Below, piece after piece: positions 1-48,185 of a stretch of DNA of 64,000 nt. The notes beneath the pieces are model-generated. The model saw only the letters and a program-made list of their open reading frames with translations. It had not been told where the DNA came from and searched no databases. The position numbers and the translations under genes were made by a program. Every line of letters starts with the position of its first letter. Position 1 is the stretch's first letter. Origin of the DNA: Parcubacteria group bacterium (GTDB lineage Bacteria > Patescibacteriota > Minisyncoccia > UBA10092); the NCBI GenBank assembly GCA_016186325.1, contig JACPLW010000002.1, positions 66,290 to 130,289 of the forward strand. The letters are read 5' to 3'.

Positions 1-13
1 ATCAAGCACAACG

Positions 14-748
14 ATGGTATTTTTTGAGAATATCAATAAAGCCGCTAAAAACGTAGAAAAATCACTGATGCCGAATAACATACCGTCCCAAAACAACGCA
101 ACTATAACTTCGGACGGAATTATCCTTTCGCTCACAAAGGAACAATTTGATTTTCTATACCCCGATTATTTTATTGCCGACTTAATTGATGCCCAAAATT
201 CCTTTGTTAAAGAGCAGGACTCCAGTTACGAACCCATACTAAAAATTGAAACTGATTCCCAAGTTAGATTTATTGAAGAGAAAATCGTGGCCACTTTACT
301 TATAGCCGACATGATAACCAGAGAAAGAGCGGAGCAATTGGTAACTACTATCCGCTTCACTCTCCCCCGGCTTCAAATTACAGGTTTACAAAATCAATAC
401 TCTTATGAATCAATGCCATTTTCAAAATTTTTTGAAACTGCTTTAGAGAGAAAAACGGAACTTCCGGAGACAGCGCCAAAGAGACAACTTTGGACCGGTT
501 TTATAGGGCAAATGGCAAATTCGTTTACTAACAAAGCCCAAGCCGCTTGCGGCGAGTGTGAATCTCGACCGGAATGCTACCAAGATTATCCTGATACTCC
601 GGGAAAAGAAGGATCCTCACTGATTTATCCTTCTTGTTACTGCACCGGCTGTCTTACTTCACTTGGATGCCTTTCCGCAAATGAAGGAGATGCGGCGATT
701 TATGACCAACAAACCGGAATTTGCGGCATCGGTCAGGGACAGCAGTGA
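14..748 (+). CDS. hypothetical protein with Cys-rich C-terminus (first ORF of the T4SS-like block; upstream context cut by window edge)
   Basis: 244-aa ORF with window-typical AT-rich codon usage; C-terminal cluster CGECESRPEC...CYCTGC...CGIG; no family recognised. Confidence 0.45.
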   Translation: MVFFENINKAAKNVEKSLMPNNIPSQNNATITSDGIILSLTKEQFDFLYPDYFIADLIDAQNSFVKEQDSSYEPILKIETDSQVRFIEEKIVATLLIADMITRERAEQLVTTIRFTLPRLQITGLQNQYSYESMPFSKFFETALERKTELPETAPKRQLWTGFIGQMANSFTNKAQAACGECESRPECYQDYPDTPGKEGSSLIYPSCYCTGCLTSLGCLSANEGDAAIYDQQTGICGIGQGQQ

Positions 749-790
749 AGACGGGTTTAAAAACATTTACACACTACCTTTAAACAAACA

Positions 791-1597
791 ATGATTAAAA
801 AACATTTTATAACTATATTTATAGTATCGGCTGGAATTATTTTCGGAGCACTTTTATTTGTTCCGGCTTCAAAAACTTTTTACGTAAAAAACAGCGCACC
901 GCGCCTTCAGGTAGCCAGTATCCATCAAAAGCTGTATCAAGCCGAAGATAGGGTCGGCGATATTTCCAACAATATTATTCCGGAAATAAAAATCCCGGAG
1001 AATTTAACCGAAAATTTCGCCGGGCTTTTAGCCAAATCAATTATTGATAAAAATAATAAGCCGAAAGATGCCAATTCGCCGGCCGAGCCGGGGCTTGATG
1101 TGCCGGACCCGAGTAAAATTGCCGAGGAATTTATAAAAAACGGTTTGGCGAAAGCTAATGAAAATATTTTGAACATTAAACCGCCGGAAATTAAAACATC
1201 GCCGGTAAACAGCAAAGAAGCAATTGAAATTTACCTAGCAGAGACCCAAAAAATATTAAAAGACGCCTTAAAAGGCGAACCGCTTTTATCAATTTTAGAA
1301 GAAATAAACAAAAACAATGGCCAAGGCCTTGAAAAACTTTTGCCCGTAATAAGCGCCCATGAAGCGGCGGCTAATCAAATTGAAGAAAATCCGGCGCCGA
1401 GCAATATAAAAGATTTAATTACGGAGGAAGTTCGCATGTTAAGAATTACGGCCAACATTTTAAGAGCGCTTACCAATGTTGAAACCGACCCCATAGCGAC
1501 TATTGTTGCCGCAAAACAGTTTGGCGCGGTAATTGACAGTTGGGAAGAGCTTCAGAAAAAATTCAATGTTTTTGTTGATAAACTAAATAAAACCTAA
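791..1597 (+). CDS. bitopic membrane protein (N-terminal TM anchor, Lys/Glu-rich extracytoplasmic domain); VirB8-like topology but no sequence-level assignment
   Basis: N-terminal hydrophobic segment IFIVSAGIIFGALLFV immediately after the start; co-directional with and tightly spaced to the VirB6/VirB4 genes. Confidence 0.45.
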   Translation: MIKKHFITIFIVSAGIIFGALLFVPASKTFYVKNSAPRLQVASIHQKLYQAEDRVGDISNNIIPEIKIPENLTENFAGLLAKSIIDKNNKPKDANSPAEPGLDVPDPSKIAEEFIKNGLAKANENILNIKPPEIKTSPVNSKEAIEIYLAETQKILKDALKGEPLLSILEEINKNNGQGLEKLLPVISAHEAAANQIEENPAPSNIKDLITEEVRMLRITANILRALTNVETDPIATIVAAKQFGAVIDSWEELQKKFNVFVDKLNKT

Positions 1598-1605
1598 TCC
1601 CCATA

Positions 1606-3072
1606 ATGAAATTTTTTAATAAAAAAATAGTCGTTTCAGTTTTTTTGTTTTTAATCGTGTTTTCAACCGCGCCAAACGCTGCTTTTGCCGCCGTGCCGAC
1701 TTTTGAAACAAATCCGAAGTTGCTATCCGATGAGTCAATTACGTCTATATTCCAAACAGCCACAAACCTTGAACAGATTTTCGAATGGGCGTTTAAAATA
1801 GCGGCCGAGGCCTTAAAGCGACAACTGCTTAATATGATTGTTGACCAGATAGTCACTTGGATCCAAGGGGGAGGAGAACCAAAATTTATCACCGATTGGC
1901 CGGGGTTCTTTCGGGACGCCGTTGACCAGGCGGGTGGAAGATTCTTACAGCAATTGGGGCTTGGATTGTTTTGTTCGCCATTCAACCTGACATTACGCGC
2001 TGCATTTATACCAATACCGCAATTTTCCGACCGCAGCGCCTGCACCTTAAGCCAGGTAGGAGTTAATCTTGATAACTTTTTAAAAGATTTCAGCAAAGGC
2101 GGCTGGGTGGCTTGGAACGAAATGGTGTTAAAACCCCAAAATAACATCTATGGAGCCTATCTCATGGCTTGGGATCAATATACCGTAGAAAGATCGGCGG
2201 CCCAAAAAGCGGCAGAATCGGAAGCCCAGGCCGGCCAGGGTTTTCTTAGCGTAAAAAAATGCATAAGACAGCACGAAGAAATAATAGGAGAAGAAAATGG
2301 ACAACCGATTACTACCACTGTTTGTGACCAGTATCAGGTGATTACTCCGGGAGCGGTTGTTGGCGACATTGCCGCAAAAGCCGTTGGTTCAGACATTGAC
2401 TATATAGTAAACGCTCAAGATTTTGCCGCTTATGTTTCGGCCATCACTAATGCGATATTAAATAGAATGTTTGCTGAAGGAGTGGGCCTTTTGCATGCCA
2501 GCTTATCCGGAAGAAGCGGTACCACTGGCGGCACTGCCCAACAACAGTGCGCTTCATTTCTTGGCACGCCGGCCTACGCCGAATGTCTAAGCGCGGTTCA
2601 AGCCGGAATAAATGTACGGGAATTTCAGAAAAATTATCTTATAAGATACATTGACCTTGACCTCGTATACCAAAATCAGCTTTTGGGCGCCAAACAGGCG
2701 ACACTGACAATTTTAAACCAATCGCTCAGCATTTTGCGCCAGCTTGAAACCTGCCAAGGATTTCCCAGCCCCGACACAGCCAGAGTTCAGAGCGACATTA
2801 GCACTGTCACCGGCCAAATAGCGGATATTCAATCCGACATTATCGCTCTTCAACTTTTGCAGCAACAGATTAGAAATCTTACCGATTTAAGCAGAATTGC
2901 TTCAATCTACGCCGAAGTGGTTGGAATGTTTAGTCCTGGAGTTACCCAGAGTTTAGCTTTAGCGGCTCAACAGGAAACCAATCAGAAACAGATAATTTTA
3001 AGGAATTATCAGAATCTATTGAATGCCTGCTTGGAGTCAAGAATAATACCGCCGCCGCCACCCGGCGAGTAA
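1606..3072 (+). CDS. secreted hypothetical protein (signal peptide), T4SS-associated
   Basis: N-terminal signal peptide VFLFLIVFSTAPNAAFA; 488 aa, helical, ends PPPPPGE; 9-nt gap to previous gene and 10-nt gap to next. Confidence 0.5.
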   Translation: MKFFNKKIVVSVFLFLIVFSTAPNAAFAAVPTFETNPKLLSDESITSIFQTATNLEQIFEWAFKIAAEALKRQLLNMIVDQIVTWIQGGGEPKFITDWPGFFRDAVDQAGGRFLQQLGLGLFCSPFNLTLRAAFIPIPQFSDRSACTLSQVGVNLDNFLKDFSKGGWVAWNEMVLKPQNNIYGAYLMAWDQYTVERSAAQKAAESEAQAGQGFLSVKKCIRQHEEIIGEENGQPITTTVCDQYQVITPGAVVGDIAAKAVGSDIDYIVNAQDFAAYVSAITNAILNRMFAEGVGLLHASLSGRSGTTGGTAQQQCASFLGTPAYAECLSAVQAGINVREFQKNYLIRYIDLDLVYQNQLLGAKQATLTILNQSLSILRQLETCQGFPSPDTARVQSDISTVTGQIADIQSDIIALQLLQQQIRNLTDLSRIASIYAEVVGMFSPGVTQSLALAAQQETNQKQIILRNYQNLLNACLESRIIPPPPPGE

Positions 3073-3082
3073 TTCGTAGTTT

Positions 3083-5065
3083 ATGAAAAAATTTCTAACA
3101 AAAAACAAAAAAATTGTCTGTTTGATGATTGCCAGCATTGTTATCTTTTCTTTACCATTTCCCGCCTCGGCCGTTTGGTACAATCCGACCTCTTGGTTAG
3201 GCAGCCTTGTCACTCTTAGCGCGGATGCTTTACTTTTTGTTTCAAGCGTTATCAGCGCCATGATAGGAATAGTTTTTGGCGTCATAATTTATCTCGAAGC
3301 CCAAATAATAGATTATCTGCTTAATCCAACAAATTTTCCCATGACTAACGCGCCAATTGTGACTCTCGGGTGGGGTATTACTCGCGACTTGGCCAACATG
3401 TTTTTCATTCTCATTCTCCTTATTATCGCGTTCGCGACGGTTTTAAGAATCCAATCCTACGCTTTAAAACAACTTTTGTGGAAAGTGGTCGTGGCCGCGC
3501 TCCTCATTAACTTCAGCTTGGTCATCGCCGGTTTTGTCATTGATTTTACTAATGTTATCACTACATTTTTCTTACGCCAAATTATAGGCAATAACGGAGT
3601 ATTTACATTTACCGGCAAATTAATGTCTGCAATGCAAATTCTTAATTTTTACAACCCCTCTCCACCAGAAGGAATAATTAGCGGAGCGACTCAATTCGGT
3701 GCTGCCGCTATAGCCGCTTTCGCGGGCATTGTTTTAACTTTAATCGCACTCATTGTAACTACATTTGTTTTCGGCGCGGCAATGATATTTTTAATAGTTA
3801 GAATCATTAACATTTGGATTTTATTGATTTTCGCGCCCATTGTCTGGACGCTTTGGATTCTGCCGGCTACAAGCGGCCAATTTTCAAAATGGTGGCATTC
3901 TTTTTTGCAGTGGGCTTTTTTCGCGCCGATTTTCGTTTTTATGATGTATCTTTCACTTTCCATTTTTGACGCCACTGGCAAATTAAAAGAGCATATCGGC
4001 CCGGTAGCGCTCCCGGCTAACTGGAATAAAGCGGAGGCCGGTCTTACAACAGCCGCGATGCCAGCGGCAATTTTCCAGTTTGCCTTAGCAATTGGTTTAA
4101 TGTTCGGTTCTTTAATCGTAGCCCAAAAATTCGGCACTTACGGCGCCGCCGCCAGCCAGAAGATGCTTGAAGGGTGGGGTAATAGCGCTAAAGGATTAGC
4201 CGCAAGGGAACTTAGAAAGAGAGGGGCGGGCTGGACCCAGCCGCTACCCGAAGGCGCTCCACCACCAACTGGTGTAAGAGGCATCATAAGAAGAGCTGGC
4301 GCAGGACTAGGCAGAGCCGCGGTGGCTGTGCCCGGTGCTAGAGGAGCATACTTGAATTTGCAGGCAAAAAATAAAAAAGATTATGAAGACGCACAAAATA
4401 AATACAAAGACGTTGATCCGGCAGTATTACAACAAATGTCGCAATCAACATTAATAGATTCAAGGGGAAAACTTGCGATTAAGCATTTACTTATGAGCAA
4501 AGGAAAGTTAAAACCGCAAGCGCCGGAACTTATGAAAATGCTTGACCAATCAAGACAATACGGCAAAGAAGGAGAAATGTTAAAATTGGTTTCTGAAAAA
4601 ATGAATAAAGATTTAACCGCCGCTAATGGCTATGGTAATGCTGAAAGAACAGAACTGCTGCAAAGAGCAAAAAAGTATGGTAATGAAAAAGATTATCTTA
4701 AATTCTTCCCGAACCTTGCTCCAGCAATAGGTAAGACAATTCAAGAAGCCGTTAAGGGAATAGAAAAAGCATCAGATATCTACGTTGATCAGATGACCGC
4801 CGATGTTGTAAGAGAATTAAGCATGCCTCAGCTCAAAGATATAGGCAAGAGCGGTTCCGATGCACAGAGAAGAGCTACAAAAATAGCCGTCATTCAAGAT
4901 TACAGAGGCCTTAGTCTAAGCGATAGGCAAAGCATCAGAATCGTATCTTTTGAAAAGAATCTTCAAAAACGAGAAGAGCTTAGAAAAACCTTACCGGAAA
5001 ACTTAAGAAAAATGTCCTACCAGCGAGAAATTACTACAACGCCCGCATGGGAACAAAACATTTAA
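3083..5065 (+). CDS. VirB6/TrbL-like polytopic inner-membrane channel protein with long hydrophilic C-terminal tail
   Basis: 660 aa; at least 6-7 long hydrophobic helices in the first ~350 aa, Gly/Arg-rich linker, Lys-rich soluble tail; sits in a VirB3-VirB4 neighbourhood as in Gram-positive/monoderm T4SS. Confidence 0.55.
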   Translation: MKKFLTKNKKIVCLMIASIVIFSLPFPASAVWYNPTSWLGSLVTLSADALLFVSSVISAMIGIVFGVIIYLEAQIIDYLLNPTNFPMTNAPIVTLGWGITRDLANMFFILILLIIAFATVLRIQSYALKQLLWKVVVAALLINFSLVIAGFVIDFTNVITTFFLRQIIGNNGVFTFTGKLMSAMQILNFYNPSPPEGIISGATQFGAAAIAAFAGIVLTLIALIVTTFVFGAAMIFLIVRIINIWILLIFAPIVWTLWILPATSGQFSKWWHSFLQWAFFAPIFVFMMYLSLSIFDATGKLKEHIGPVALPANWNKAEAGLTTAAMPAAIFQFALAIGLMFGSLIVAQKFGTYGAAASQKMLEGWGNSAKGLAARELRKRGAGWTQPLPEGAPPPTGVRGIIRRAGAGLGRAAVAVPGARGAYLNLQAKNKKDYEDAQNKYKDVDPAVLQQMSQSTLIDSRGKLAIKHLLMSKGKLKPQAPELMKMLDQSRQYGKEGEMLKLVSEKMNKDLTAANGYGNAERTELLQRAKKYGNEKDYLKFFPNLAPAIGKTIQEAVKGIEKASDIYVDQMTADVVRELSMPQLKDIGKSGSDAQRRATKIAVIQDYRGLSLSDRQSIRIVSFEKNLQKREELRKTLPENLRKMSYQREITTTPAWEQNI

Positions 5066-5074
5066 TTTCAATAT

Positions 5075-6031
5075 ATGCCAGAATTAACTCGAGAAGAAAA
5101 AATAAAATTATTTGAAAAGTTGCCGAAAGAACTTCAGGATTTGATGGAATCCGAAAATACCGGCGCGTTTTTATTGTATTTGGGAGAAAAATATAATTTA
5201 GATGAAGATAAAATTTCTTTACTTTCTAAAATCGTTGGCAACGTTATTTTAAAAATTACGCCGATAACAAGTTTAGCCCAAGAAATTGTAAATAAAGTAA
5301 TTCCCGACTCTCAAATAGCAATGGCGATTTCCCAAGAATTAAACAGCGGGCTTCTAACGCCTGTCTTAATGCAAGCCCCAACAGCGCCGCCAGCTATAAC
5401 GGCAACACCAAGACCTGTTTTACCAACTGCCCCCGCACTCCAACCCATTCCATCTCCTGCTGTCCCTTCAGCAAAAATTGTTTCGCCCGCCGTGCCGAAA
5501 ATTGACCAATATCGCGAACCAACAACAGCGGGGCCGGAAATTATTGACTTGAGAAAAGCCCCGCCATCGCCACTCCACAGCTTTCCTCGACCTTCCGAAG
5601 CCTTGCGCGAAGGAGGTAGCGAAGGAGAGCTACCGCCCGGGTTGCCTGTAGCCGCCGCGCCAATTCTACTTGAAGCAGATCCTCATTTACCCGAAAAAAT
5701 TTCACCTGCGCCGCCTGTCCAAATACCAAGTACCAAATACCAAATACCGTTAACCGACACTTACCGTGAATCCATTCCACCGGCAACCGCGCCTGCCGCT
5801 CCGTTGATGCCGGCAACAAATGCAGAGCCCAAAGAACCGCCTGTGGCAGGTAAAGTCGAACCACCTGTGGTGAGTAAAGTCGAACCACCACCTCAATATA
5901 TCATTAGGCCGCCCGGCTTACCGCCAATCCCGACGCCTCAGGTCGGGACTCCGACTTCGCCACAGGCGAACGTCGGAGCCGATAGTTATCGTGATGTTTT
6001 AGATTTAAGAAAAGACAAGGGAGAATTTTAA
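5075..6031 (+). CDS. proline-rich low-complexity protein (T4SS-associated, possible cell-wall spanning or adhesin-like)
   Basis: 318 aa; structured N-terminal ~90 aa then P/A/T-rich tract with a tandem 27-nt duplication (GKVEPPVV/SKVEPPP); contains a GC-rich palindromic insert at 5591-5616. Confidence 0.45.
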   Translation: MPELTREEKIKLFEKLPKELQDLMESENTGAFLLYLGEKYNLDEDKISLLSKIVGNVILKITPITSLAQEIVNKVIPDSQIAMAISQELNSGLLTPVLMQAPTAPPAITATPRPVLPTAPALQPIPSPAVPSAKIVSPAVPKIDQYREPTTAGPEIIDLRKAPPSPLHSFPRPSEALREGGSEGELPPGLPVAAAPILLEADPHLPEKISPAPPVQIPSTKYQIPLTDTYRESIPPATAPAAPLMPATNAEPKEPPVAGKVEPPVVSKVEPPPQYIIRPPGLPPIPTPQVGTPTSPQANVGADSYRDVLDLRKDKGEF

Positions 6032-6044
6032 ATCTTAGAAATTT

Positions 6045-6473
6045 ATGACTCAATACCAGGTCCCACAATTTGTAGATATAGAAGACAGGATCATCGGGCC
6101 GCTTACGCTTAAGCAATTTTTATATCTTGCTTTTGGCGGCGCCATTCTTTTTGTTACTTGGTTTATTTTCAAATTTTTCATCTGGATAATCATTGCCATT
6201 CCCGTGATCGCTGCCGCTTTGGCTTTTGCTTTTATAAAAATAAACGACCGGCCGTTTGTTTATTTTGCAATCGCCGCAGTATCGTATTTTATGAAACCAA
6301 GACTATATATTTTCAAGACTGCATCAAAAAAACCGGAACCTGTAATTTTGCCCGAAAAAACACCGGAATCCTCCTCCGCCCCGCAAAGCGGGGCTTCGGC
6401 GGACGAGAAAGTAACCAGATCAAAATTAAAAGAACTGGCGCTTAGTTTGGATACGGGCGCGCAGCGCCTTTAA
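6045..6473 (+). CDS. PrgI/VirB3-like small membrane protein
   Basis: 142 aa; N-terminus VPQFVDIEDRIIGPLTLKQFLYLAFGGAILF then a two-TM hairpin, resembling the PrgI family; directly upstream of the VirB4 ORFs. Confidence 0.6.
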   Translation: MTQYQVPQFVDIEDRIIGPLTLKQFLYLAFGGAILFVTWFIFKFFIWIIIAIPVIAAALAFAFIKINDRPFVYFAIAAVSYFMKPRLYIFKTASKKPEPVILPEKTPESSSAPQSGASADEKVTRSKLKELALSLDTGAQRL

Positions 6474-6478
6474 CAATC

Positions 6479-7144
6479 ATGCCGGAAACGCAAAAAACAA
6501 TTAAAGGGCCCGCAACACAGGAGTTTTTAGCCGTGGATGAAATCCGAGAAGATGTCGTTATTTTAAAAAACGGCGGGCTTCGGGCGGTTTTGATGACCGG
6601 TTCAAGAAACCTGGAGCTTGAATCAATCGATACTCAAAATGCCATCATCAAAAACTACGCCGATTTTCTAAATTCTTTTGACTGGCCGATTCAAATAATA
6701 ATCCATTCAAGAAAACTGGATATTAATCCCTATTTAAAATTACTTGAAGAAAAGTTAAAAACTCAAGAAAACGAGCTTCTAAAAATTCAGACAGCCGAAT
6801 ACATCGATTTTATAAGAAGTTTTGTTTCTCTTTCCGATGTGATGATTAAGAGGTTTTACATTTCCGTGGCCTTTGACCCAATTGAGTCAAAAACTGAAGG
6901 ACCGCTTGAAAAACTTGCCTCCATGATCGGCAAAGCGTCAAAAAAAGCCGCGCTTTCAGAAGAGATGTTCAAAGAATACAGAAGTCAAATGCTTCAACGG
7001 GTTGAACACACGGTCTTGACATTAGCCCACATCGGCATTAAGGCATCGCAGTTAAAGACAGACGAACTCATTGAACTGTTTTACAATCTTTATAATCCGG
7101 AAGATTTAGAGAAGAAAGACATTCAACTAACCGACAACTTGTAA
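6479..7144 (+). CDS. virB4: VirB4/TraC-family ATPase, N-terminal domain (separate ORF)
   Basis: Start motif TQEFLAVDEIREDVVILKNGGLRAVLMTGSRNLEL matches the VirB4/CagE N-terminal region; ends at TAA at 7145; next ORF in a different frame continues the family. Confidence 0.6.
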   Translation: MPETQKTIKGPATQEFLAVDEIREDVVILKNGGLRAVLMTGSRNLELESIDTQNAIIKNYADFLNSFDWPIQIIIHSRKLDINPYLKLLEEKLKTQENELLKIQTAEYIDFIRSFVSLSDVMIKRFYISVAFDPIESKTEGPLEKLASMIGKASKKAALSEEMFKEYRSQMLQRVEHTVLTLAHIGIKASQLKTDELIELFYNLYNPEDLEKKDIQLTDNL

Positions 7145-7161
7145 CAAAATAAGCAACCAAA

Positions 7162-9015
7162 ATGGCATTGTCTTTTTTCGGAAAAAAATCCGCCCAAAAC
7201 GAGACCTCGCCCCTTCGGGGCGGGGAAGGAATTCAGGGCGTTGTTACGCCGGAACAGGCCTATCAAAAAGGGCTGGCGTCTTTGCACGATATCTTGGCAC
7301 CATCGGCTCTAGAGGTTAATACTAATTACTTGCGCCTTGGTAAAAAGTTCGTTCAGAACTTTTTCATATTCAACTACCCTCGTTTTCTCAACACTAATTG
7401 GTTTGCTTCGGTTATTAACTTGGACAAAACAATGGACATAAGTTTTTTTATACATCCGGTTGATACGGGAATTGCCCTAAAAAATCTAAGAAAAAAAGTG
7501 GCGCAAGTTGAATCGGAACTTTCAATACGCGATGATAAAGGGCTGGTACGCGACCCAATGCTTGAAACTGCTTACAACGATCTTGAAGATTTGAGAGATA
7601 AACTTCAGCAATCAAGAGAAAAACTTTTCAAGTTCGGGCTTTACATAACCGCTTATGCCGATTCGCTTGAAGAAATGGAAAAAGTTGAAAACGCGATTCG
7701 CTCAATTTTAGACGCCAAACTGGTTTACAGTAAGCCGGCTATTTATCAACAGCTTAAAGGCTTTAACTCCACCCTGCCTCTTTCAAATGATGAACTCCAA
7801 ATAAATACAACCATGAACTCGGGGTCGATATCCGCGACCTTTCCTTTTGTTTCTTCGGATTTAACTTCTGACAACGGCATACTTTACGGCCTAAACCGCC
7901 ACAATAATTCGCTTATTCTTTTCGACAGATTTTCCTTGGAAAACGCCAATACCGTTGTTTTCGGCAAATCGGGCGGCGGAAAATCTTATGCTTCAAAATT
8001 GGAAATTCTAAGGTCTTTAATGCTTGGAGCAGACATTATTGTTTTTGATCCCGAAAGTGAATACCAGTTTCTCGCGGAAACTATCGGCGGCGCTTTTTTT
8101 AAAATTTCATTAACTTCTCAAAATCATTTAAATCCTTTTGACCTGCCAAAACCGCAAGAAGGTGAAAATCCGGCGGACATTTTAAGATCAAACATTATTA
8201 ATCTTGTCGGCCTTATAAGAATAATGCTGGGCGGCTTGAGCCCCGAAGAAGACGCCATAATCGATTCTGCTATAACCCAGACTTATGCCAGCCGCGACAT
8301 CACTCCCGCAACCACAGACTTTTCAAAAAATATCATGCCCACAATGACAGACCTTAAAACGATTTTGGACAGCATGACCGGCGCCGAATCACTTTCAAGA
8401 CGGCTGGAAAAATACGTTACCGGTTCTTACGCCGGCTTTATTAACAACCCGAGCAACATTGAAATAAAAAGTAAATTTGTGGTTTTCAGCATCCGCGACA
8501 TGGAAGAAGAACTGCGGCCGATAGCAATGTATATGATGCTTCACTTTATCTGGAATATTGTCCGCTCGGAACTTAAGAAGAGAATCCTTATGGTTGACGA
8601 GGCTTGGTGGCTTTTAAAATCAGAGGACGGCGCTTCTTTTATGTTTGGAATTGCCAAGCGCGCCAGAAAATACTTTTTGGGAGTGACCACCATTACCCAG
8701 GACGTATCCGATTTCTTAAGCAGTTCTTATGGAAAACCAATTTTAACCAATTCTTCTTTGCAGTTTCTTTTTAAGCAGTCGCCGGCAAACATTGACGTTC
8801 TCCAAAAAACTTTTAACTTGACCGATGAGGAAAAATTCTTATTGCTTGAGTCGGAGGTCGGCGAGGGCCTGTTTTTTGCCGGATCAAAACACGTGGCCAT
8901 TAAAGTAATCGCTTCCTATACCGAAGACCAGATTATCACTTCCGACCCGGCTCAGCTCCTGCAAATAGAGGCCGCAAAAAAAGAATTGGAGCGTGCCGAA
9001 ACAATAACACCGTAA
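7162..9015 (+). CDS. virB4: VirB4/TraC-family ATPase, C-terminal NTPase domain
   Basis: Walker A VVFGKSGGGKSYASK, Walker B/DEAW box RILMVDEAWWLL, length and order typical of VirB4 C-half; carries an in-frame GC palindromic insert at 7201-7230. Confidence 0.8.
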   Translation: MALSFFGKKSAQNETSPLRGGEGIQGVVTPEQAYQKGLASLHDILAPSALEVNTNYLRLGKKFVQNFFIFNYPRFLNTNWFASVINLDKTMDISFFIHPVDTGIALKNLRKKVAQVESELSIRDDKGLVRDPMLETAYNDLEDLRDKLQQSREKLFKFGLYITAYADSLEEMEKVENAIRSILDAKLVYSKPAIYQQLKGFNSTLPLSNDELQINTTMNSGSISATFPFVSSDLTSDNGILYGLNRHNNSLILFDRFSLENANTVVFGKSGGGKSYASKLEILRSLMLGADIIVFDPESEYQFLAETIGGAFFKISLTSQNHLNPFDLPKPQEGENPADILRSNIINLVGLIRIMLGGLSPEEDAIIDSAITQTYASRDITPATTDFSKNIMPTMTDLKTILDSMTGAESLSRRLEKYVTGSYAGFINNPSNIEIKSKFVVFSIRDMEEELRPIAMYMMLHFIWNIVRSELKKRILMVDEAWWLLKSEDGASFMFGIAKRARKYFLGVTTITQDVSDFLSSSYGKPILTNSSLQFLFKQSPANIDVLQKTFNLTDEEKFLLLESEVGEGLFFAGSKHVAIKVIASYTEDQIITSDPAQLLQIEAAKKELERAETITP

Positions 9016-9059
9016 ATTAGAGATTAGATATTAGGATTTAGAAATTATATAATGTATAT

Positions 9060-9521
9060 ATGGCACTAGCGGAAAAATTAGAAAAAAGAGAAGCTTCTTT
9101 AAAAGAAAAACTAACCAAAAAATCCCAGGAAGCCGAAAGAAGCAAAACAGTGAAAATTGATTCAATGGAATGGCTCATATTATTTATGGGCGCCGGCTAC
9201 ATTGATCTGCTTTTTGTAATTTTAACCGTTATAGGATTAATACCAGTAGTGGGACAGGTTATTTATGCCATTGCAGATCCGGCCATGAACATTATCGCTA
9301 CGGGCATATTTTGGTTTTACTTGCAGTATAAAGGACTCGGAGGTTATTGGTGGCTGGCCTTTGGAGGCGGCGTGGCGAATCTGATCCCTGTCGTTAATTG
9401 GATTGGCTGGATAATGGCGGTTTTAATTCTTTACTTCTTAATCAAGGCGGAAAAAATTCCTTTGGCCGGTGAAGCGATTGAAAAAGCCGCCAAAGCAGCG
9501 TCAAAAGTTCCGATTAAATAA
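9060..9521 (+). CDS. small polytopic membrane protein (3-4 TM), T4SS-associated
   Basis: 153 aa; charged N-terminus then hydrophobic stretches LILFMGAGYIDLLFVILTVIGLIPVV and WIGWIMAVLILYFLI. Confidence 0.45.
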   Translation: MALAEKLEKREASLKEKLTKKSQEAERSKTVKIDSMEWLILFMGAGYIDLLFVILTVIGLIPVVGQVIYAIADPAMNIIATGIFWFYLQYKGLGGYWWLAFGGGVANLIPVVNWIGWIMAVLILYFLIKAEKIPLAGEAIEKAAKAASKVPIK

Positions 9522-9524
9522 ATA

Positions 9525-10598
9525 ATGAAACACGCAACAAACAACATGCAACATAAAACATATAATTTAAAGCAATCGATTATGGCCGTATTTTTATTGT
9601 TTGTTTCATGTTTCATGTTTCGTGTTTCATGGGCATCGGCGCAATTTGAATTGCCAACAATAGGAAGCATTAAACCGGCTATTTCCTTGAGCTCCGACCC
9701 GTTAACACCTCTGCCTAATTCAACAATTACCATCGCCGCAAACCTTTCGGGAGTAACCGGCAGCGGAAGTTCAAACTACACATGGTTTTTAAATGGCGTG
9801 AGGCAAACCGAGCATTCCGGATTAAATAAGAGCAAATTTACTTTCAAAGCTAGCGCCATCGGCATTGTCTATAGAATAAATGTCAATGTTACAATGCCAG
9901 GCGGCGGAGTTCTTTCAGATGCTGCGGTTTTTACCGTCAGCGACGTTGACCTAAGCTGGAATGCATCCAGCGAAGCGCCGGCCGGCTATCGCGGTAAGAC
10001 TCTTCCAACCAAAAAGTCGGCAGTTTTGATATCGGCCCTGCCAACCATATACCAACCGGGAACGAAAGCCTTGATAAGTTCCGGCGGTTTAGTCTTTAAC
10101 TGGTTTATAAATGGTAAACTCCAAGCCGACAAGTCGGGAATCGGGCGATCTGACCTAAATTTTTATGTTGGCAGTTTCTCCGGAGGCAGCGAAGAAATCC
10201 GCTTAGAAGTAAAAACGGGAGATAGCACCGTTTCTCTAAACAAATTCGTTACCGTCCCAATAATGCGGCCTCAAACTTTTATATATGTTGCCGATAATAA
10301 AACGTCCTTGCCTTACGGCAAAGCGTTGAGAGATTTTTTTATAGAGTCAGCCACAGTTAAAGCAATCGACTTCGTGGCAGAAAATTATTTTTTCAACTTT
10401 CCTAAAAACCGGTTAAAATGGAGTTGGCTGGTTGACAGTAGAGAAATAATGGGAGGAGGGGATAAGCCGTGGTCTGCTGTTTTAAATGTTCCGGAGAACA
10501 TCGCCCGACCATTTTCTTTTCAAGTCAGGGCAGTTGCCCAAAATCCGCAGGAAGACTTGGAAATAGCCGAATCAACGGCAAACTTGAAAGTAAGATAG
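9525..10598 (+). CDS. secreted protein with three internal sequence repeats
   Basis: Signal peptide ending WASAQ; three repeats of the type NYTWFLNGVRQ / FNWFINGKLQ / LKWSWLVDSRE; its leader is paralogous to the leader of the next gene. Confidence 0.5.
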   Translation: MKHATNNMQHKTYNLKQSIMAVFLLFVSCFMFRVSWASAQFELPTIGSIKPAISLSSDPLTPLPNSTITIAANLSGVTGSGSSNYTWFLNGVRQTEHSGLNKSKFTFKASAIGIVYRINVNVTMPGGGVLSDAAVFTVSDVDLSWNASSEAPAGYRGKTLPTKKSAVLISALPTIYQPGTKALISSGGLVFNWFINGKLQADKSGIGRSDLNFYVGSFSGGSEEIRLEVKTGDSTVSLNKFVTVPIMRPQTFIYVADNKTSLPYGKALRDFFIESATVKAIDFVAENYFFNFPKNRLKWSWLVDSREIMGGGDKPWSAVLNVPENIARPFSFQVRAVAQNPQEDLEIAESTANLKVR

Positions 10599-10630
10599 GA
10601 TGACGAATCATAAAACGCATAACCTGAAAC

Positions 10631-11059
10631 ATGAACAACAAAACCCACAACCTAAAGTTACCTGCCACGGCTGTATTTTTATTATTTGTTTTATTTTTTG
10701 CGCTTTACACTTCACCGGTTTTGGCCCAATACCGGCTTGAGACCGGGCTTCCCGGCGTACCCGGCGGGAAGTTACCGGCAGGAACCGAACTCCCTTCTTA
10801 TCTTAGATACCTTTTTATCTTTGGGTTGGGGTTTATTACTGTTTTGGCTCTTAGCGTAATGATGTTTGGTGGCATCCAATACATTCTGGCGGCTGGAAAC
10901 GCGGCTAAAACGGAAGAAGCTAAAGCTTGGATTCAACAAGCGCTCTTCGGCCTTGGCCTGCTTTTGGTTTCTTATCTCCTTCTAAGAACCATTAATCCAG
11001 ATTTGGTTAATTTGAGAAACCCTAATCTCGCCCCAACCCAACTTCAAAGTTCACCATAA
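10631..11059 (+). CDS. VirB2/TrbC-like pilin candidate (signal peptide plus two hydrophobic helices)
   Basis: 142 aa; leader VFLLFVLFFALYTSPVLAQ then hydrophobic helix, short loop, second hydrophobic helix, as in T-pilin/TrbC subunits. Confidence 0.45.
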   Translation: MNNKTHNLKLPATAVFLLFVLFFALYTSPVLAQYRLETGLPGVPGGKLPAGTELPSYLRYLFIFGLGFITVLALSVMMFGGIQYILAAGNAAKTEEAKAWIQQALFGLGLLLVSYLLLRTINPDLVNLRNPNLAPTQLQSSP

Positions 11060-11061
11060 AT

Positions 11062-12159
11062 ATGTCCAAAAAAACTCTCTATATAATTTTAATAGTCATT
11101 GGCAGCCTCATTTTAATTGGAGGTTTAATTTGGTACTTTCTATTAAGGCAAACGGAAACATTGCCGCCGGGAACGGACTTTACGGTAAACGGCCAGCCCG
11201 TCACCGGCGAAAGCAAGCTCAAAGCCATAAGCAACGGCCCGGCTGTTGCCGCTAAGTTGAGTGGTGAAATGCTTTTGTTTTATGATTTTTCCGGCCAGCT
11301 GTGGCAGTTGCCAATCGGAACAACTGCGCCGGTCGCCGCCCCGCAGGCGACCATTGGCAATCCGGCAGATGTTGTCTGGTCGCCAGACCTTAAAAACATA
11401 GTTAAATCAGGAATTTGGCAAGCCGATATTAAATACGTTTTTTCCGACTTCACCAAAAAGACCTTGATTAATTTAAAAAGCGGGATTAAATCGCTCTCGT
11501 TTTCGCCCGACGGAGGAAAAATAACTTATTATGTTTTTGAAAACCTTAAAAGCAACAGTTTATTTACTAGCGACCCTGATGGTAAAAATCAAAGAGCGCT
11601 ACTGGTCTCTCTAAAGTTGCGAGACATAGTTTTAGCATGGCCTAAAATCAACCAAATAAGCCTGACCTCAAAACCAAGTGGTTTGATTCCAGGCGGAGTC
11701 TGGACCATTGACACTAGAAATCTCGTGTTTGCCAAAATTATTGGAGATTTTAACGGTTTGGAAATATTGTGGGCGCCAGACGGAAATAGTTTCGTTTATT
11801 CTTTTACCGACCAAAACGGGCGAAATCCCCAGTTGGCGGTACACAGCAAAAAAGGCGAGGAAAAAAACCTAAGCGGCATTTCAACTGTAATTGACAAATG
11901 CGCTTGGGCAAGTGATTCGATAAATGTGTTTTGCGCAGTACCGGAAAACTGGCCGGAAGGAATGGTTTTGCCTGACGATTACTATAAGAGAGTTGATTTA
12001 ACAGTTGATAACATTTGGAAAATTAACACCGAAACCGAAGAAAAAAGGTTGCTGGCTTCGGGTCTGGGAGACATTAAAAACCTCATAATCGATAAGAATG
12101 AAGACAATATGTTCTTCATTCTAAGAAACGACCAGGTTTTATATGAATTAAACTTTTAG
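11062..12159 (+). CDS. membrane-anchored TolB-like (PD40) beta-propeller protein
   Basis: N-terminal TM LYIILIVIGSLILIGGLIWYFLL; repeated SPDG/APDG blades (WSPDLKN, SFSPDGGKITYY, WAPDGNSFVYSF). Confidence 0.55.
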   Translation: MSKKTLYIILIVIGSLILIGGLIWYFLLRQTETLPPGTDFTVNGQPVTGESKLKAISNGPAVAAKLSGEMLLFYDFSGQLWQLPIGTTAPVAAPQATIGNPADVVWSPDLKNIVKSGIWQADIKYVFSDFTKKTLINLKSGIKSLSFSPDGGKITYYVFENLKSNSLFTSDPDGKNQRALLVSLKLRDIVLAWPKINQISLTSKPSGLIPGGVWTIDTRNLVFAKIIGDFNGLEILWAPDGNSFVYSFTDQNGRNPQLAVHSKKGEEKNLSGISTVIDKCAWASDSINVFCAVPENWPEGMVLPDDYYKRVDLTVDNIWKINTETEEKRLLASGLGDIKNLIIDKNEDNMFFILRNDQVLYELNF

Positions 12160-12617
12160 TTAATGTATTTAATCACAACCCGCCTTTCTTCACCTTCTCC
12201 GGCACTCTCCGTTTTTATATCCGGATGTGCAGAGAGTTCGATGTGAATGATTCTTCTGTCATAAGCCGTCATTGGCTCTAAAACCACTTCACGCTTGTAA
12301 AACCTGGCTTTATGAGCAGCTTTTTTAGCCAGCTCTTTAAGCGATCCGTCTCTTAAACTCCGGTAATTATTTACATCAAGGTGAAAGAACGGCGCTCCGT
12401 TTAACTTCTTTTTCAATATAAGCCGTAAAACCGTTTCAAACACACTAATGTTGCGTCCCCGCTCGCCTATATACGAACTTGGATCATCGGTCAAAAAGCA
12501 AATGTTAAGCGATTCTTCACTTCCGGTTTCAATGATTTTTATCTCAAAATTTGAAGCCCCCGTTTTTGCGAAAAACTCATTTGTTACATCTTTAATTTTT
12601 TCCAAGTTTTCGGTCAT
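12156..12617 (-). CDS. jag: Jag/KhpB RNA-binding protein (KH plus R3H domains)
   Basis: R3H signature YDRRIIH near the C-terminus; conserved position downstream of yidC in the rpmH-rnpA-yidC-jag cluster. Confidence 0.8.
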   Translation of the reverse strand: MTENLEKIKDVTNEFFAKTGASNFEIKIIETGSEESLNICFLTDDPSSYIGERGRNISVFETVLRLILKKKLNGAPFFHLDVNNYRSLRDGSLKELAKKAAHKARFYKREVVLEPMTAYDRRIIHIELSAHPDIKTESAGEGEERRVVIKYIN

Positions 12618-13305: not shown

Positions 13306-13630
13306 TTTTTGTGAGTAATTCTCTTAAATTATCTTTAATGCTCCTGTAATCTTTGTTTTTAGCGGGCTCTCTCGGCCATATGATAATATCATATCCTGGT
13401 TTTACCTTTTTAAACAAAAAAAGCGCTGCCGCTCTTAGCTGCCTTTTAATTTGGTTCCTTTTTGACGCTTTTTTATAAAACTTGGTGCTGACAATAAAAC
13501 CGAACCTGCTGAAATTTTTGTAATTTTTCACGAATTTCATCTTTACAAGGCCATTCTCACAAGTTTTTCCTTTAGTAAAAGCGTTTTTGAAGTCGCCGGT
13601 TGCCGTTAGGCGGTTAATTCTAGGAAGCAT
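13286..13630 (-). CDS. rnpA: ribonuclease P protein component
   Basis: 114 aa basic protein starting MLPRINRLTATGDFK; overlaps yidC start; directly downstream of rpmH. Confidence 0.8.
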   Translation of the reverse strand: MLPRINRLTATGDFKNAFTKGKTCENGLVKMKFVKNYKNFSRFGFIVSTKFYKKASKRNQIKRQLRAAALFLFKKVKPGYDIIIWPREPAKNKDYRSIKDNLRELLTKNDILSF

Positions 13631-13658
13631 ATGCTTGCATTTGCAAATGATAATAAAG

Positions 13659-13793
13659 TTAAACAGTTAGCTTATAACGGCCTTTTCGCCTTCTCCTCGA
13701 AATGACCGCGCCTCCGCCTTTACTACCCGCCCTTTTTAAAAATCCGTGCTTGCGTTGTCTTTTTATTTTTTTTGGATTATAGGTTTTACTCAT
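13659..13793 (-). CDS. rpmH: 50S ribosomal protein L34
   Basis: Hand translation of the minus strand gives MSKTYNPKKIKRQRKHGFLKRAGSKGGGAVISRRRRKGRYKLTV; not in the supplied ORF track because it is under 60 aa. Confidence 0.85.
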   Translation of the reverse strand: MSKTYNPKKIKRQRKHGFLKRAGSKGGGAVISRRRRKGRYKLTV

Positions 13794-13889
13794 CCCGTTA
13801 GAAATTTAATTCTAAATAATAATTTTCACTATATCTTAAAACTATAAACAATATATCCTGTTAAATAACTAGTATAGATTTCTAACAGG
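13794..13889. repeat. long-range inverted-repeat pair CCCGTTAGAAAT ... 72 bp AT-rich spacer ... ATTTCTAACAGG (copy a); left arm abuts the rpmH start codon
   Basis: Left arm 13794-13805 lies immediately 5' of the rpmH ATG on the minus strand; right arm 13878-13889 has one substitution that is a G-U wobble only on the minus-strand transcript. Confidence 0.7.
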
Positions 13890-14060
13890 ACTCATACTTT
13901 TATATTTTTATAACACGAAAATTGATATTGCGTCAAACATTTAAATTAATTTATACTTTTCAACAGAGTACTCACAGGTTATTAACTTTTTTACGAATGA
14001 AAGTTTTCTTAAAACCCTTTTACTTAATGATATACTGGAAATGTAGAATTTATAATCAAC

Positions 14061-15440
14061 ATGGATTTCAATGAATTGTGGAAAGCGGTTCTAGGAGATA
14101 TAGAACTGCAAATTTCAAAAGCAAATTTTAAAACTTGGCTACAAAATACCGCTATTGTAGATAAAAAAGACGGTGTTGTTACTATTGCCGTACCTAATGG
14201 CTTTACTAAAGAATGGTTGGAAAACAAGTACAATAAGTCTATCCTAAGGTCTTTGAGAAACATTCAGTCGGACATTAAAGAAGTAACTTATCAAATCAGC
14301 CAAAAACAAACAAAAAACATTGACAATAATCAGAAGCTCTCTAAAGAGGAGGGTGCAATTTCAAAAAAACAGCTCGATTTTGTCGAACTTAACGCGGATA
14401 CAGAGACAAATTTAAATCCCCGATATGCCTTTGAAAATTTCATTGTAGGCCCATCGAATGAGCTGGCTCATGCCGCCGCTATTGCTGTAACTAAAAATTT
14501 AGGGAAAAAATACAATCCACTCTTTATTTACGGAGGAGTGGGCCTGGGTAAAACCCATTTAATTCAATCAATAGGCCAAGCCGTTAAAAAAGAGCACCCA
14601 AATAAGAAGGTGAAATATGTCACTTCCGAAAGGTTCACTTCAGAAGTGGTTTCTACTTTAAGATCCGGAGCATTAAGATCAAACGATATTGATAACTTTA
14701 AAAAAAGATGGCGCGAAATCGATTTGTTAATAATTGATGACATCCAGTTTTTAGCCGGTAAAGAAAGAACTCAAGAAGAATTCTTCCATATTTTTAACGC
14801 TCTCTACGATGTCGGAAAGCAAATAGTACTTTCGTCAGACCGGCCGCCAAAATCAATCCAAAACATGGAAGAGAGGTTGAGATCTCGCTTTGAAGGAGGC
14901 ATGCTTGCCGACATATCATATCCCGACCTCGAAACCAGAATCGCTATTCTAAAAACCAAGGCTCATGAGAAAGGATTTCAAGCTTCGGACGAAGCTTATG
15001 AATTTATAGCTTCTAACATAAAAAAGAATGTAAGAGAACTTGAAGGAGCTTTAAACCGGCTAATAATAAATCGCCGCGACGACCAAAAGGAATTAACAAT
15101 AGTGGAAGTAAAGAAAAGTTTAAATTCAATTATAAATACCCCTAAAAAAATCACTACATTAAAAAACATTATTAAGGCCGTCGCGGAATTTTACGATATT
15201 AGTGAAAAAGACCTTTTAGAACGCTCCAGAAAAAAAGAAATAGTCAAACCTAGACAAATAATAATGTACCTTTTAAGAGAAGAATTAAAAAGTTCTTTCC
15301 CTTTTATCGGGATGAAAATTGGAGGACGGGATCATACTACTGCCATTCATGCGTGTGAAAAAATAAAAAAAGAACTCGATTCTAATCCGACTTTATGTGA
15401 TGAAATTAATGTAATAAGAGAAAAACTTTACCTTGTTTAA
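14061..15440 (+). CDS. dnaA: chromosomal replication initiator DnaA
   Basis: AAA+ Walker A GGVGLGKTHL, box VII and sensor motifs, C-terminal DNA-binding domain; dnaA-dnaN synteny. Confidence 0.95.
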   Translation: MDFNELWKAVLGDIELQISKANFKTWLQNTAIVDKKDGVVTIAVPNGFTKEWLENKYNKSILRSLRNIQSDIKEVTYQISQKQTKNIDNNQKLSKEEGAISKKQLDFVELNADTETNLNPRYAFENFIVGPSNELAHAAAIAVTKNLGKKYNPLFIYGGVGLGKTHLIQSIGQAVKKEHPNKKVKYVTSERFTSEVVSTLRSGALRSNDIDNFKKRWREIDLLIIDDIQFLAGKERTQEEFFHIFNALYDVGKQIVLSSDRPPKSIQNMEERLRSRFEGGMLADISYPDLETRIAILKTKAHEKGFQASDEAYEFIASNIKKNVRELEGALNRLIINRRDDQKELTIVEVKKSLNSIINTPKKITTLKNIIKAVAEFYDISEKDLLERSRKKEIVKPRQIIMYLLREELKSSFPFIGMKIGGRDHTTAIHACEKIKKELDSNPTLCDEINVIREKLYLV

Positions 15441-15696
15441 AATTTTGTGGAAAAACTGGTTACAAACCAATAAATAACTGTGGGTTAATAAGTGATTAAA
15501 AAGTTTATAAATTTAATTTTTAATTTAATACTAAAAACTAGAAACAGAGTATTACCAAGTTATTCACAAAATTATTAACATGATAATAAGAGAAAAAGGG
15601 CTTAAATAACAAATAAATAAAACTTATACACTTAAAAATCACTGTTTAATAATAATAAGTTATAAAAAATAAATAATAGTTAATGATAATATAAAA
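15441..15696. promoter_or_regulatory. putative oriC: AT-rich dnaA-dnaN spacer with DnaA-box-like 9-mers
   Basis: TGTGGAAAA (1 mismatch to TGTGGATAA), TTATTCACA (1 mismatch to TTATCCACA), TGTGGGTTA, TTATACACT, plus a long AT-only tract as a candidate unwinding element. Confidence 0.5.
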
Positions 15697-23293: not shown

Positions 23294-23298
23294 TTGAT

Positions 23299-23397
23299 CC
23301 CGTTAGAAATCTAATTTAATTATATTAAATTTGCATTTTTATAAACTCATGAGTTGATTATCCGCCTCGCTTTGACTAAACATAAATTTCTAACGGG
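23299..23397. repeat. inverted-repeat pair CCCGTTAGAAAT ... 75 bp spacer ... ATTTCTAACGGG (copy b), 5 nt upstream of the ruvB start codon
   Basis: Perfect 12-bp arms at 23299-23310 and 23386-23397. Confidence 0.75.
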
Positions 23398-23639
23398 ATT
23401 GACAATCTCACTTAATTTAAGTATAATATAAAAATATGGCATCAGTTGTTCCTAATAACCTCGAGGCAATAAAGACTCTATTTTAAACCATAAGGTCTTT
23501 CTGGGGGCTTTTCCATGTCGGGTGATCTGGTTCCGATTGGATCATTGCACAACTTAGTCCTATCCCTTCAAGCTGGCTTGAAGGACCATTGCCTCGAGAT
23601 TATTAGGCGCAAGTCTACTCCGATTATTTATGAGATTTT

Positions 23640-25533: not shown

Positions 25534-25983
25534 ATGATTGAAGCAATCTCCAAATCGGCAAACGAGACAAAAAAGATTGCGGTCTCGCTAGCGGAAAAGA
25601 TAAAAAAGCGGCCGCTTTCAAAAGTAGCGCTTATTATTGCTTTGGAAGGCGATTTGGGCTCCGGTAAAACCACCTTTATCCAAGGGTTGGCTCAAGAACT
25701 GGGAGTTGAGGAAAACATTTTAAGCCCGACTTTCGTGATTCAAAAAGATTTTCCGCTTTCTTTAAAAAATTTTAAAAACCTTTATCACATTGACGCTTAC
25801 CGGTTGAAGAATCCGCTGGAACTTCTGGAACTTGGATTTGAAGACTTAATCAAAAATCCGGAAAATCTCATTGTTATCGAATGGGCTGATAAAGTTAGAA
25901 AGATTTTGCCAGAAAACATTTTAAAAATAAAACTTGTTAATTTAAAAGGCAGTAAAAGAAAGATTCAAATTTTCAATTTCTAA
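25534..25983 (+). CDS. tsaE: tRNA t6A37 biosynthesis protein TsaE
   Basis: P-loop LEGDLGSGKTTFIQGLA; start chosen at MIEAIS (ORF-track start at 25459 is probably an extension). Confidence 0.75.
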   Translation: MIEAISKSANETKKIAVSLAEKIKKRPLSKVALIIALEGDLGSGKTTFIQGLAQELGVEENILSPTFVIQKDFPLSLKNFKNLYHIDAYRLKNPLELLELGFEDLIKNPENLIVIEWADKVRKILPENILKIKLVNLKGSKRKIQIFNF

Positions 25984-45531: not shown

Positions 45532-45628
45532 TTGATTTTATCCATTTTTAGTATATAATTATCTGGTATTTTGTATATTGTATCTGGTATCTAGTATACC
45601 AAATACAAAATACCAAATACAAAATACA

Positions 45629-48184: not shown

Positions 48185-48185
48185 T

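Follow-up and report, generated by a model that had tools for sequence, protein, structure and literature searches.

How does the same GC-rich palindrome come to lie, in frame, within two unrelated genes of one bacterial genome? The question is raised by a stretch of 64,000 nucleotides (nt) from a Candidatus Azambacteria, or Parcubacteria-group, metagenome-assembled genome (contig JACPLW010000002.1, hereafter the window), for which an initial annotation had described near-identical palindromes of about 29 nt in virB4 and holA, translated as ETSPLRGGEG and ETSPLQGGKA, and had proposed a mobile palindromic element inserted in frame, like the Rickettsia palindromic elements (RPEs). Our analysis indicates that both sites probably hold a tiny GC-rich repeat element that codes for no protein of its own, is inserted as a whole unit and is mobilised in trans. 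The features on which this reading is built are the following.

7162-9015, plus strand: host gene 1, a VirB4-like conjugal-transfer ATPase of the CD1110 family (NCBIfam conju_CD1110, E 5e-115).
7189-7224, plus strand: element copy 1, 36 nt, TCCGCCCAAAACGAGACCTCGCCCCTTCGGGGCGGG, peptide SAQNETSPLRGG, residues 10-21 of the VirB4-like ATPase.
7208-7222, plus strand: second hairpin of copy 1, CGCCCC TTC GGGGCG with a 6-bp stem, the part spotted in the initial annotation.
29461-30417, plus strand: host gene 2, holA, encoding the DNA polymerase III delta subunit (TIGR01128, E 3e-59).
29668-29703, plus strand: element copy 2, 36 nt, TCCGCCAAAGGCGAGACATCGCCCCTTCAGGGCGGG, peptide SAKGETSPLQGG, residues 70-81 of HolA.

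Re-reading of the sequence found both palindromes in place, with the translations given above, and the names virB4 and holA hold by the family matches just listed. The holA string is present too, although its quoted end, 29708, was off by one base (it spans 29680-29707). The near-identical GC-rich unit is likewise real, but it is a 36-nt double hairpin and not a single palindrome of 29 nt; the trailing (G)AAGG that had been counted with it is host sequence and occurs in the empty virB4 site. In repeat finding the two copies agreed at 31 of 36 positions (86% identity), and the limits of the 36-nt unit obtained in this way are exactly the indel limits seen against orthologues. Within a window of 40.8% GC the copies reach approximately 70% (0.72 in virB4 and 0.69 in holA, versus 0.42 and 0.37 for the respective host genes), and the GC content at third codon positions is 0.75-0.83 in the element versus 0.38-0.44 in the host genes. 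Both copies are placed between codons, in phase 0, which together with the high third-position GC content argues for conservation at the level of DNA and not of the peptide.

The core motif CGCCCCTTCRGGGCG, with up to two mismatches allowed, was matched three times in the window, against 0.15 matches expected, and none of 100 shuffles reached three. The third match (36824-36838) was rejected as chance: it lies on the antisense strand of a relA/spoT-like gene, and the open reading frame (ORF) reads DLPEGATPVDF. The nhmmer profile recovered the virB4 copy with 36.3 bits (E 1.5e-9) and the holA copy with 41.9 bits, and found no further diverged copies in the window, the weaker matches being 10-13 nt of the first hairpin module.

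The evidence for insertion comes from filled and empty sites (fetched loci are given L numbers and orthologous proteins P numbers). The closest VirB4 orthologue, P0001, is 95% identical and reads MALSFFGKK|EGIQG where the window reads MALSFFGKK-SAQNETSPLRGG-EGIQG, and the insert is found in none of the 120 VirB4 orthologues listed. In DNA, the independent contigs L001 and L002 read GGAAAAAAA|GAAGGAAT, and the window holds exactly 36 nt in between; measured against these contigs, the insertion limits are unambiguous, there is no target duplication, and the indel is the cleanest of all those found over the syntenic stretch of approximately 19 kb. The copy begins 27 nt past the start codon and, since the N-terminus MALSFFGKKE before the insert is conserved across VirB4 orthologues, it lies within translated sequence. 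In the case of holA, the uninterrupted KNIF|K is seen in P0122-P0124, which are closest to the window protein (79-81% identity in the columns shared), while the window reads KNIF-SAKGETSPLQGG-K, and the empty site is seen in the DNA of L003 and L004 as TTC|AAA, without the 36 nt. The insert-bearing HolA protein was assembled identically in six separate Logan runs, thus it is no accident of assembly.

A third pair was provided by a Planctomycetota pckG, which is filled in L015 and empty in L042 (a 92%-identical orthologue, GGCAAA|TTTGTC), again with no duplication. At all three pairs compared in DNA (virB4, holA and pckG) the whole unit is either present or absent and no target duplication accompanies it. 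The three empty sites (AAA|GAA, TTC|AAA and AAA|TTT) have no common motif, and the flanking runs of T and A belong to the target, not to the unit. The orthologue alignments, with P0001, the 120 listed VirB4 proteins and the HolA proteins P0122-P0124 all lacking the peptides, thus bear out the initial annotation in treating these peptides as insertions, and on such sequence comparisons we regard both copies as inserted.

The same holA position holds related, different units in three other orthologues: one of 30 nt in L007 (TCCGCCAAAGGCGGA TCCATCTCTGGCGGA), one of 30 nt in L006, and one of 63 nt with an extra nested palindrome in L005. Wherever one of the few orthologues has a peptide at this holA site, the underlying DNA is GC-rich and palindromic too, so no case of a conserved peptide without palindromy was met. 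For each insert-bearing HolA the nearest relatives (71-83% identical) are without the insert, and the insert-bearers are not mutual nearest relatives; being scattered in this manner among insert-free proteins, they indicate that the holA site was gained, or precisely lost, several times. As a separate observation, two related genomes, L004 (8504-8851) and L006 (604-1032), have bAvd genes, accessory to diversity-generating retroelements, at 1-2 kb upstream of holA, and no counterpart was noted there in the window.

The unit occurs in two forms, of 33 nt (TCCGCCAAAGGCGAGACCTCGCCCAAAGGCGGG) and 36 nt (TCCGCCAAAGGCGAGACCTCGCCCCTTCGGGGCGGG). The 33-mer is laid out as TCCGCC-AAA-GGCGAG / ACC / TCGCCC-AAA-GGCGGG, that is, two tandem 15-nt hairpin modules alike at 12 of 15 positions, with the 3-nt joint ACC between them. 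In the general pattern, TCCGCC-AAA-GGCGAG and TCGCCC-loop-GGCGGG, the stems are constant and the loops vary (AAA, AAG, AAT, ACA, TTC, CTTCGG, CTTCAG, TTTCAG, CAAAGG and CTTAGG between stem arms). As single-stranded DNA (ssDNA), the 36-nt master is predicted to fold into two adjacent hairpins (-11.5 kcal/mol, z -2.4 versus shuffles) and the 33-mer into a nested stem with paired ends (-10.2 kcal/mol, z -3.6). The holA copy departs from the master at positions 18 and 29. The virB4 copy departs at positions 7, 10 and 11, with the first hairpin destroyed, and this decayed copy retains the second hairpin alone in the DNA fold. As the two copies have no derived change in common, neither was copied from the other, and each descends separately from a master-like sequence.

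Since the length is a multiple of three and none of the six frames of the unit holds a stop codon, a copy within a gene adds 11-12 residues without truncation. Complementarity of the ends is limited to 5-6 bp (CCGCC/GGCGG), and none of the tetranucleotides GTAG, CTAC, CGTC and GACG occurs in the unit, whose ends are TCCG... and ...CGGG. The junctions are A/T-rich, the left flank ending in T at 11 and the right flank starting with A at 13 of 20 copies. Two other identities were considered and set aside. A CRISPR repeat or part of a structural RNA is unsupported by Rfam scans, which returned nothing but three tRNAs at the gathering threshold and, in a permissive scan of a master copy, matches at chance level (best E 0.46). 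A DNA uptake sequence was ruled out, as the copies are insertions and their number is low.

Copies were then sought elsewhere. A scan of 185,579 species-representative genomes, by a pattern fixing only the 3' 23 nt, gave two matches, both from the Candidate Phyla Radiation (CPR), where approximately 0.3 would be expected by chance (an estimate under uniform base composition). One is in trmD (YTRPEVF|SAKGETSPLRGG|KNWKVPKVLLSG), the other lies in reverse orientation in the N-terminus of a histidine-kinase ORF, and in both the unfixed 5' 12 nt are TCCGCCAAAGGC, the same as in the holA copy. When the 5' 24 nt alone were fixed, scanning metagenomes yielded 24 loci, which stem from projects on groundwater and sediment. 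With the window included, this amounts to 20 distinct simple copies plus several nested ones, in which second loops are broken by further palindromes (L014, L021, L024 and L030). All 20 simple copies end in GGCGGG, although this end was left free in the search, and 18 are 33 or 36 nt long (P 2e-7 against 1/3). The unit is therefore coherent from both sides, the 3'-fixed scan returning identical 5' ends and the 5'-fixed scan constant GGCGGG ends.

Beyond the window there are approximately 22-23 distinct sites, about 19 of 23 within long ORFs; a few copies outside long ORFs (L014 and L025) are in non-coding DNA beside other repeats. Hosts confirmed by Pfam are TrmD, GltX, a B12/radical-SAM enzyme, RpoB, SerRS, RnpA, a pseudouridine synthase, DprA, NagB and a XerC-like recombinase, and TrpS, RecG, phosphoenolpyruvate carboxykinase (PEPCK) and a histidine kinase were recognised by eye. 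The motif search thus found the unit in many unrelated genes of public genome and metagenome collections, as one would expect of the mobile element first proposed. The PEPCK of L015 shares 81-92% identity with Planctomycetota proteins (Phycisphaerae/Sedimentisphaerales), and it is the only one among the 120 orthologues listed to read DKDGK|SAKGETSPKGG|FVNGV. A phage or plasmid vector was considered and rejected: the main family had no match among 50,697 phage records or among the 2.9 million viral contigs of IMG/VR, and plasmids gave a single partial match of 23 nt (E 0.5). A sibling family of 30 nt has one intergenic copy in a viral contig (L041, 4886-4915).

This 30-nt sibling is a tandem hairpin encoding SAKGGS(A/I)SGG or SAKGGPASG in HolA, in RpoB (L013) and in GltX (L010); a sibling insert was noted at 10287-10299 of L007. 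Together with QPKAGPPLAE, which is present in about a dozen of the 120 HolA orthologues listed, and SPTFAEASAGK, the SAKGGSxSGG family is found in HolA orthologues and other proteins, and the common module of these families is CCGCC-AAA-GGCGG.

Next, the reading frame and the position of the inserts in the host proteins were compared. One frame, giving the hydrophilic peptide SAKGETSP(K/LR/LQ)GG, is used at 15 of the 19 ORF-embedded sites (P 4e-9 against 1/6). The exceptions (L008, L010, L011 and L029) either sit at the very N- or C-terminus of a protein or use another frame, reverse orientation included. In an AlphaFold model of HolA, computed with a 68-sequence alignment (mean pLDDT, the predicted local distance difference test, 85.8), residues 72-81 have pLDDT below 50 and are placed between a strand (61-66) and a helix (85-94), so that the surface loop proposed in the initial annotation agrees with the predicted structure. 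The TrmD insert falls at an alignment gap against solved TrmD structures (3ky7). We conclude that the surviving copies occupy loops, linkers or termini.

By what route could such a unit spread? Its mobility would account for the presence/absence polymorphism and for the dispersed near-identical copies, and since 33-36 nt cannot encode an enzyme, copying would have to take place in trans. The new copies are whole units with exact ends, lack a target-site duplication and lie mostly at A/T-rich junctions. The folded ssDNA might be handled by a structure-specific HUH/Y1 ssDNA transposase, like TnpA of IS200/IS605 or RAYT, the tyrosine transposase associated with repetitive extragenic palindromes (REPs); later, copies would decay, as in virB4, or gain nested palindromes. 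HUH/Y1 transposases, IS200/IS605 TnpA and RAYT among them, carry out seamless, hairpin-dependent insertion and excision. They have been proposed as the movers of REPs and of inverted REP doublets, REPINs (PMC3116915, PMC3733652). Taken alone, this enzymatic route is our preferred mechanism, yet we hold it only tentatively.

Several points weigh against it, or against a wide reach of the unit. An IS200 TnpA probe had no match in the window or in approximately 330 kb of fetched loci, and Pfam searches on 20 otherwise unannotated ORFs of the window returned no transposase (7 of the 20 had no match at all). IS200/IS605 elements need subterminal cleavage and guide sequences, but here the hairpins abut the unit ends and leave no room for either, and the unit lacks both REP tags, GTAG and CGTC. 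There are few copies, two per 64 kb in the window and one per fetched contig. Finally, only one non-CPR host has been established, so that breadth past the CPR rests on L015.

A spread without any dedicated enzyme is unlikely, though it has to be taken seriously. In this alternative, replication template switching, or microhomology-mediated repair templated by another copy, would create copies, and strain-to-strain homologous recombination, aided by natural transformation, would then distribute them. It would fit the missing target duplication and the A/T-rich junctions, the failure of the TnpA probe and of Pfam on the 20 ORFs to reveal a transposase, and the ComEC and DprA encoded in the genome; moreover, GC clusters of yeast mitochondria merge, shuffle and exchange via flanking homology (PMC4478555). 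However, exact and identical ends in unrelated genes and in two phyla are unusual for microhomology events, and no shared microhomology is visible between the unit ends and AAA|GAA, TTC|AAA or AAA|TTT.

It seems improbable that the units are excision scars, the joined ends left by a larger element bounded by hairpins (TCCGCCAAAGGCGAG and TCGCCCAAAGGCGGG). The unit does resemble two end modules with a 3-nt joint, and the nested variants (L005, L014, L021, L024 and L030) carry extra DNA between or inside the modules. Nevertheless, this nested DNA is only about 27-30 nt long and itself palindromic, no locus has the modules parted by a gene-sized segment, and the 2.9 million viral contigs contained no match.

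Far less credible is the notion that selection acts on SAKGETSP..GG as a protein module, for instance as a recognition site or flexible linker, and that the likeness in DNA is secondary. The frame bias (15 of 19) and the invariably permissive position in HolA and TrmD would suit it. Against this, the copies agree at synonymous positions and bring GC-rich codons into AT-rich genes, copies occur in reverse or other frames (L008, L010, L011 and L029) and outside long ORFs (L014 and L025), and close orthologues function without the peptide. Chance, ordinary terminator hairpins or an assembly or library artefact can practically be dismissed: the genome does have many GC-rich terminator-like hairpins and the virB4 copy is only 27 nt past its start codon, but 31 of 36 positions match with identical indel limits, 0 of 100 shuffles reach the motif count, the HolA with its insert was assembled independently in six runs, and copies with natural variants and decay come from several projects.

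VirB4 is split in two in this genome: the ATPase is the C-terminal ORF, with orthologues that are all approximately 573-623 residues long, and the N-terminal domain is a separate ORF (6479-7144), with matches both to the TrsD/TraD family and to the VirB4_plasma model in its N-terminal part. The origin of replication is near 14 kb, with dnaA at 14061 and the cumulative GC-skew minimum at 12-16 kb. The two copies are thus on opposite replichores, yet both are sense with their genes, and an orientation set by replication was rejected (n=2). This pair of sites hints that the orientation of the element follows the gene, or selection on the peptide, and not the direction of the fork.

Further observations concern the window itself. 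A conserved cluster resembling a type IV secretion system (T4SS) occupies positions 1-12160, with TrbL_3, PrgI, the split VirB4 (the TraC-like N-domain ORF and the ATPase ORF) and a T4SS pilin as members. It adjoins the rnpA-rpmH / dnaA-dnaN origin region (13630-16824), and this arrangement is syntenic in another Azambacteria genome (L001). One ORF of the cluster (5075-6031) has approximately 200 nt more than its L001 orthologue (318 versus 252 residues); the extra sequence, noted at 5839-5990 of the window, includes hairpins such as TCCCGACGCCTCAGGTCGGGACT and is a further in-frame palindromic expansion. The PolA ORF (26100-28604) carries a GC-rich palindromic in-frame segment (26967-27059, GGAMAGKPRGSEATLRGSPSSAKAMAG) in a variable stretch. 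The related genome L004 lacks this segment in its PolA. The segment is a member of another repeat family (…CCGCTAAAGCTATGGCGG…), further copies of which lie near 56319, 59032 and 60742.

Other repeats of the window lie at or near gene ends. At 38055-38109 and 45021-45075 there is a GC-rich nested palindrome of 55 nt (…CCGCCGAC…CGCCAAAGCTTTGGCG…GTCGGCGG…), its copies being 84% identical and located at the 3' ends of minus-strand topA-like and peptidyl-tRNA hydrolase genes, where it might act in the manner of a terminator or else code for a C-terminal insert. A perfect palindrome with a 12-bp stem (51733-51760, CTTCCGCCCCGCAGTTGCGGGGCGGAAG) lies directly past ftsZ, within the predicted N-terminus of a ComEC-like ORF, and is translated there as SSAPQLRGGS; either it terminates ftsZ or it is perhaps one more hairpin inserted in frame. 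A conserved inverted repeat of 14-15 nt (CCCGTTAGAAATYT ... ARATTTCTAACGGG) forms four intergenic pairs, at 13789-13900, 23294-23399, 45431-45532 and 48181-48285. The members of a pair are about 60 nt apart with an interior that is not conserved, one pair is between rpmH and dnaA in the origin region, and the pairs might serve as operators or mark the two ends of some small element. Finally, an AT-rich repeat of about 130 nt (25968-26101 and 31022-31143; 45 nt at 96% and 77 nt at 79% identity) precedes polA and a ruvA-like ORF and may be a common promoter or regulatory region.

What would such a unit mean? If confirmed, it would be among the smallest repeats for which a comparison of filled with empty sites demonstrates entry into genes as a whole, its targets being essential genes (rpoB, holA, trmD and those of aminoacyl-tRNA synthetases) in very small genomes, and it would offer a source at the DNA level for the insertions rich in Gly, Ser, Pro and Lys in these HolA, RpoB, GltX and PolA proteins. 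The unit may serve as a marker of very recent insertions and of DNA exchange between phyla, and it is a tractable system for the study of hairpin-DNA mobilisation without target duplication. Inserts of this type can also mislead alignment, start-codon calling and orthology-based annotation of metagenome-assembled genomes. It is conceivable, though doubtful, that we are dealing with a class of protein-coding mobile DNA not described before and ultra-small at 33-36 nt, a tandem double hairpin with seamless insertion and perhaps excision, currently active and nearly unchanged across CPR and Planctomycetota. Were this so, it would imply either a widespread mobilising activity that is still to be identified or a frequent passage of DNA from phylum to phylum in the communities of groundwater and sediment, and the unit and its siblings (30-nt SAKGGSxSGG, QPKAGPPLAE and others) would quite generally supply the essential proteins of reduced genomes with loop insertions.

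How does the unit compare with known repeats? The likeness to RPEs drawn in the initial annotation is justified as an analogy (insertion, dispersal, loop position), not as family membership. Both are palindromic non-coding repeats found in frame, at permissive positions, in unrelated housekeeping genes, where they add a segment compatible with the fold, and neither has a known transposase. RPEs (Ogata et al. 2000; Claverie & Ogata 2003), however, are repeats of approximately 100-150 bp from Rickettsia, with about ten families and 44 gene insertions in one genome (PMC10969869), and they end in CGTC (PMC3733652), while our unit is 33-36 nt long, without CGTC, low-copy, and hosted by CPR bacteria (Azambacteria and others) and one Planctomycetota genome. 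By the length, tag and host described for RPEs, the unit stands outside that family.

With REPs, which are GC-rich stem-loops of 20-40 bp proposed to move as ssDNA hairpins through RAYT (PMC3733652, PMC3116915), it shares the size of an imperfect GC-rich palindrome and the predicted stem-loop (-10 to -11.5 kcal/mol, z -2.4 to -3.6). Some REPs are intragenic: the genes concerned often serve replication or repair, the REPs fall in linkers or loops, and orthologues sometimes carry them at one and the same position (PMC3733652). REPs nevertheless bear GTAG or CGTC as a terminal tag, occur in high copy number and chiefly outside genes, are arranged as inverted doublets and lie on either side of a RAYT gene (PMC3733652, PMC3116915), whereas the unit is untagged, its hairpins are in tandem direct order and its recovered copies are mostly intragenic. 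No RAYT gene was found in the 64-kb window or the fetched loci with the TnpA probe and Pfam on 20 ORFs. PARCEL repeats (palindromic amphipathic repeat coding elements) are palindromic coding repeats spread horizontally among distant microbes, yet they form longer tandem arrays encoding amphipathic repeats of surface proteins, and ours are single 12-residue inserts of housekeeping enzymes (PMC2996958). Literature searches on palindromic elements of CPR, Patescibacteria or Parcubacteria, and on the element and peptide strings, found no paper describing the unit or its peptide.

Miniature inverted-repeat transposable elements have terminal inverted repeats, target-site duplications and lengths of approximately 50-500 bp, in contrast to 33-36 nt and no duplication at three pairs. 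The small dispersed repeats of cyanobacteria (Elhai et al. 2008) are reportedly hairpins of approximately 20-30 nt with insertion polymorphism, nesting and no known enzyme; their hosts and sequences differ from those of the unit. The double-hairpin elements of Allomyces (Paquin et al. 2000) are said to be a comparable mitochondrial system. The GC clusters of yeast mitochondria, such as GC42, belong to AT-rich genomes and are palindromes 18-48 nt long and rich in GC, with stems kept and loops variable, a common 5' module followed by varied downstream parts, merging and nesting, presence across species and occasional location in coding sequence, and in all this they are like the unit (PMC4478555). 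They are, however, found in organelles, for the most part between genes and with short direct repeats on their flanks (PMC4478555), whereas the unit resides in bacterial chromosomes, mostly in frame in genes, and shows no duplication at three filled and empty pairs. By analogy, its behaviour appears to resemble most closely that of these mitochondrial GC clusters and double-hairpin elements. The kind of element is thus already known; what is unexpected is its tiny size, the frame bias, the essential CPR host genes and the near-identical copy in a second phylum.

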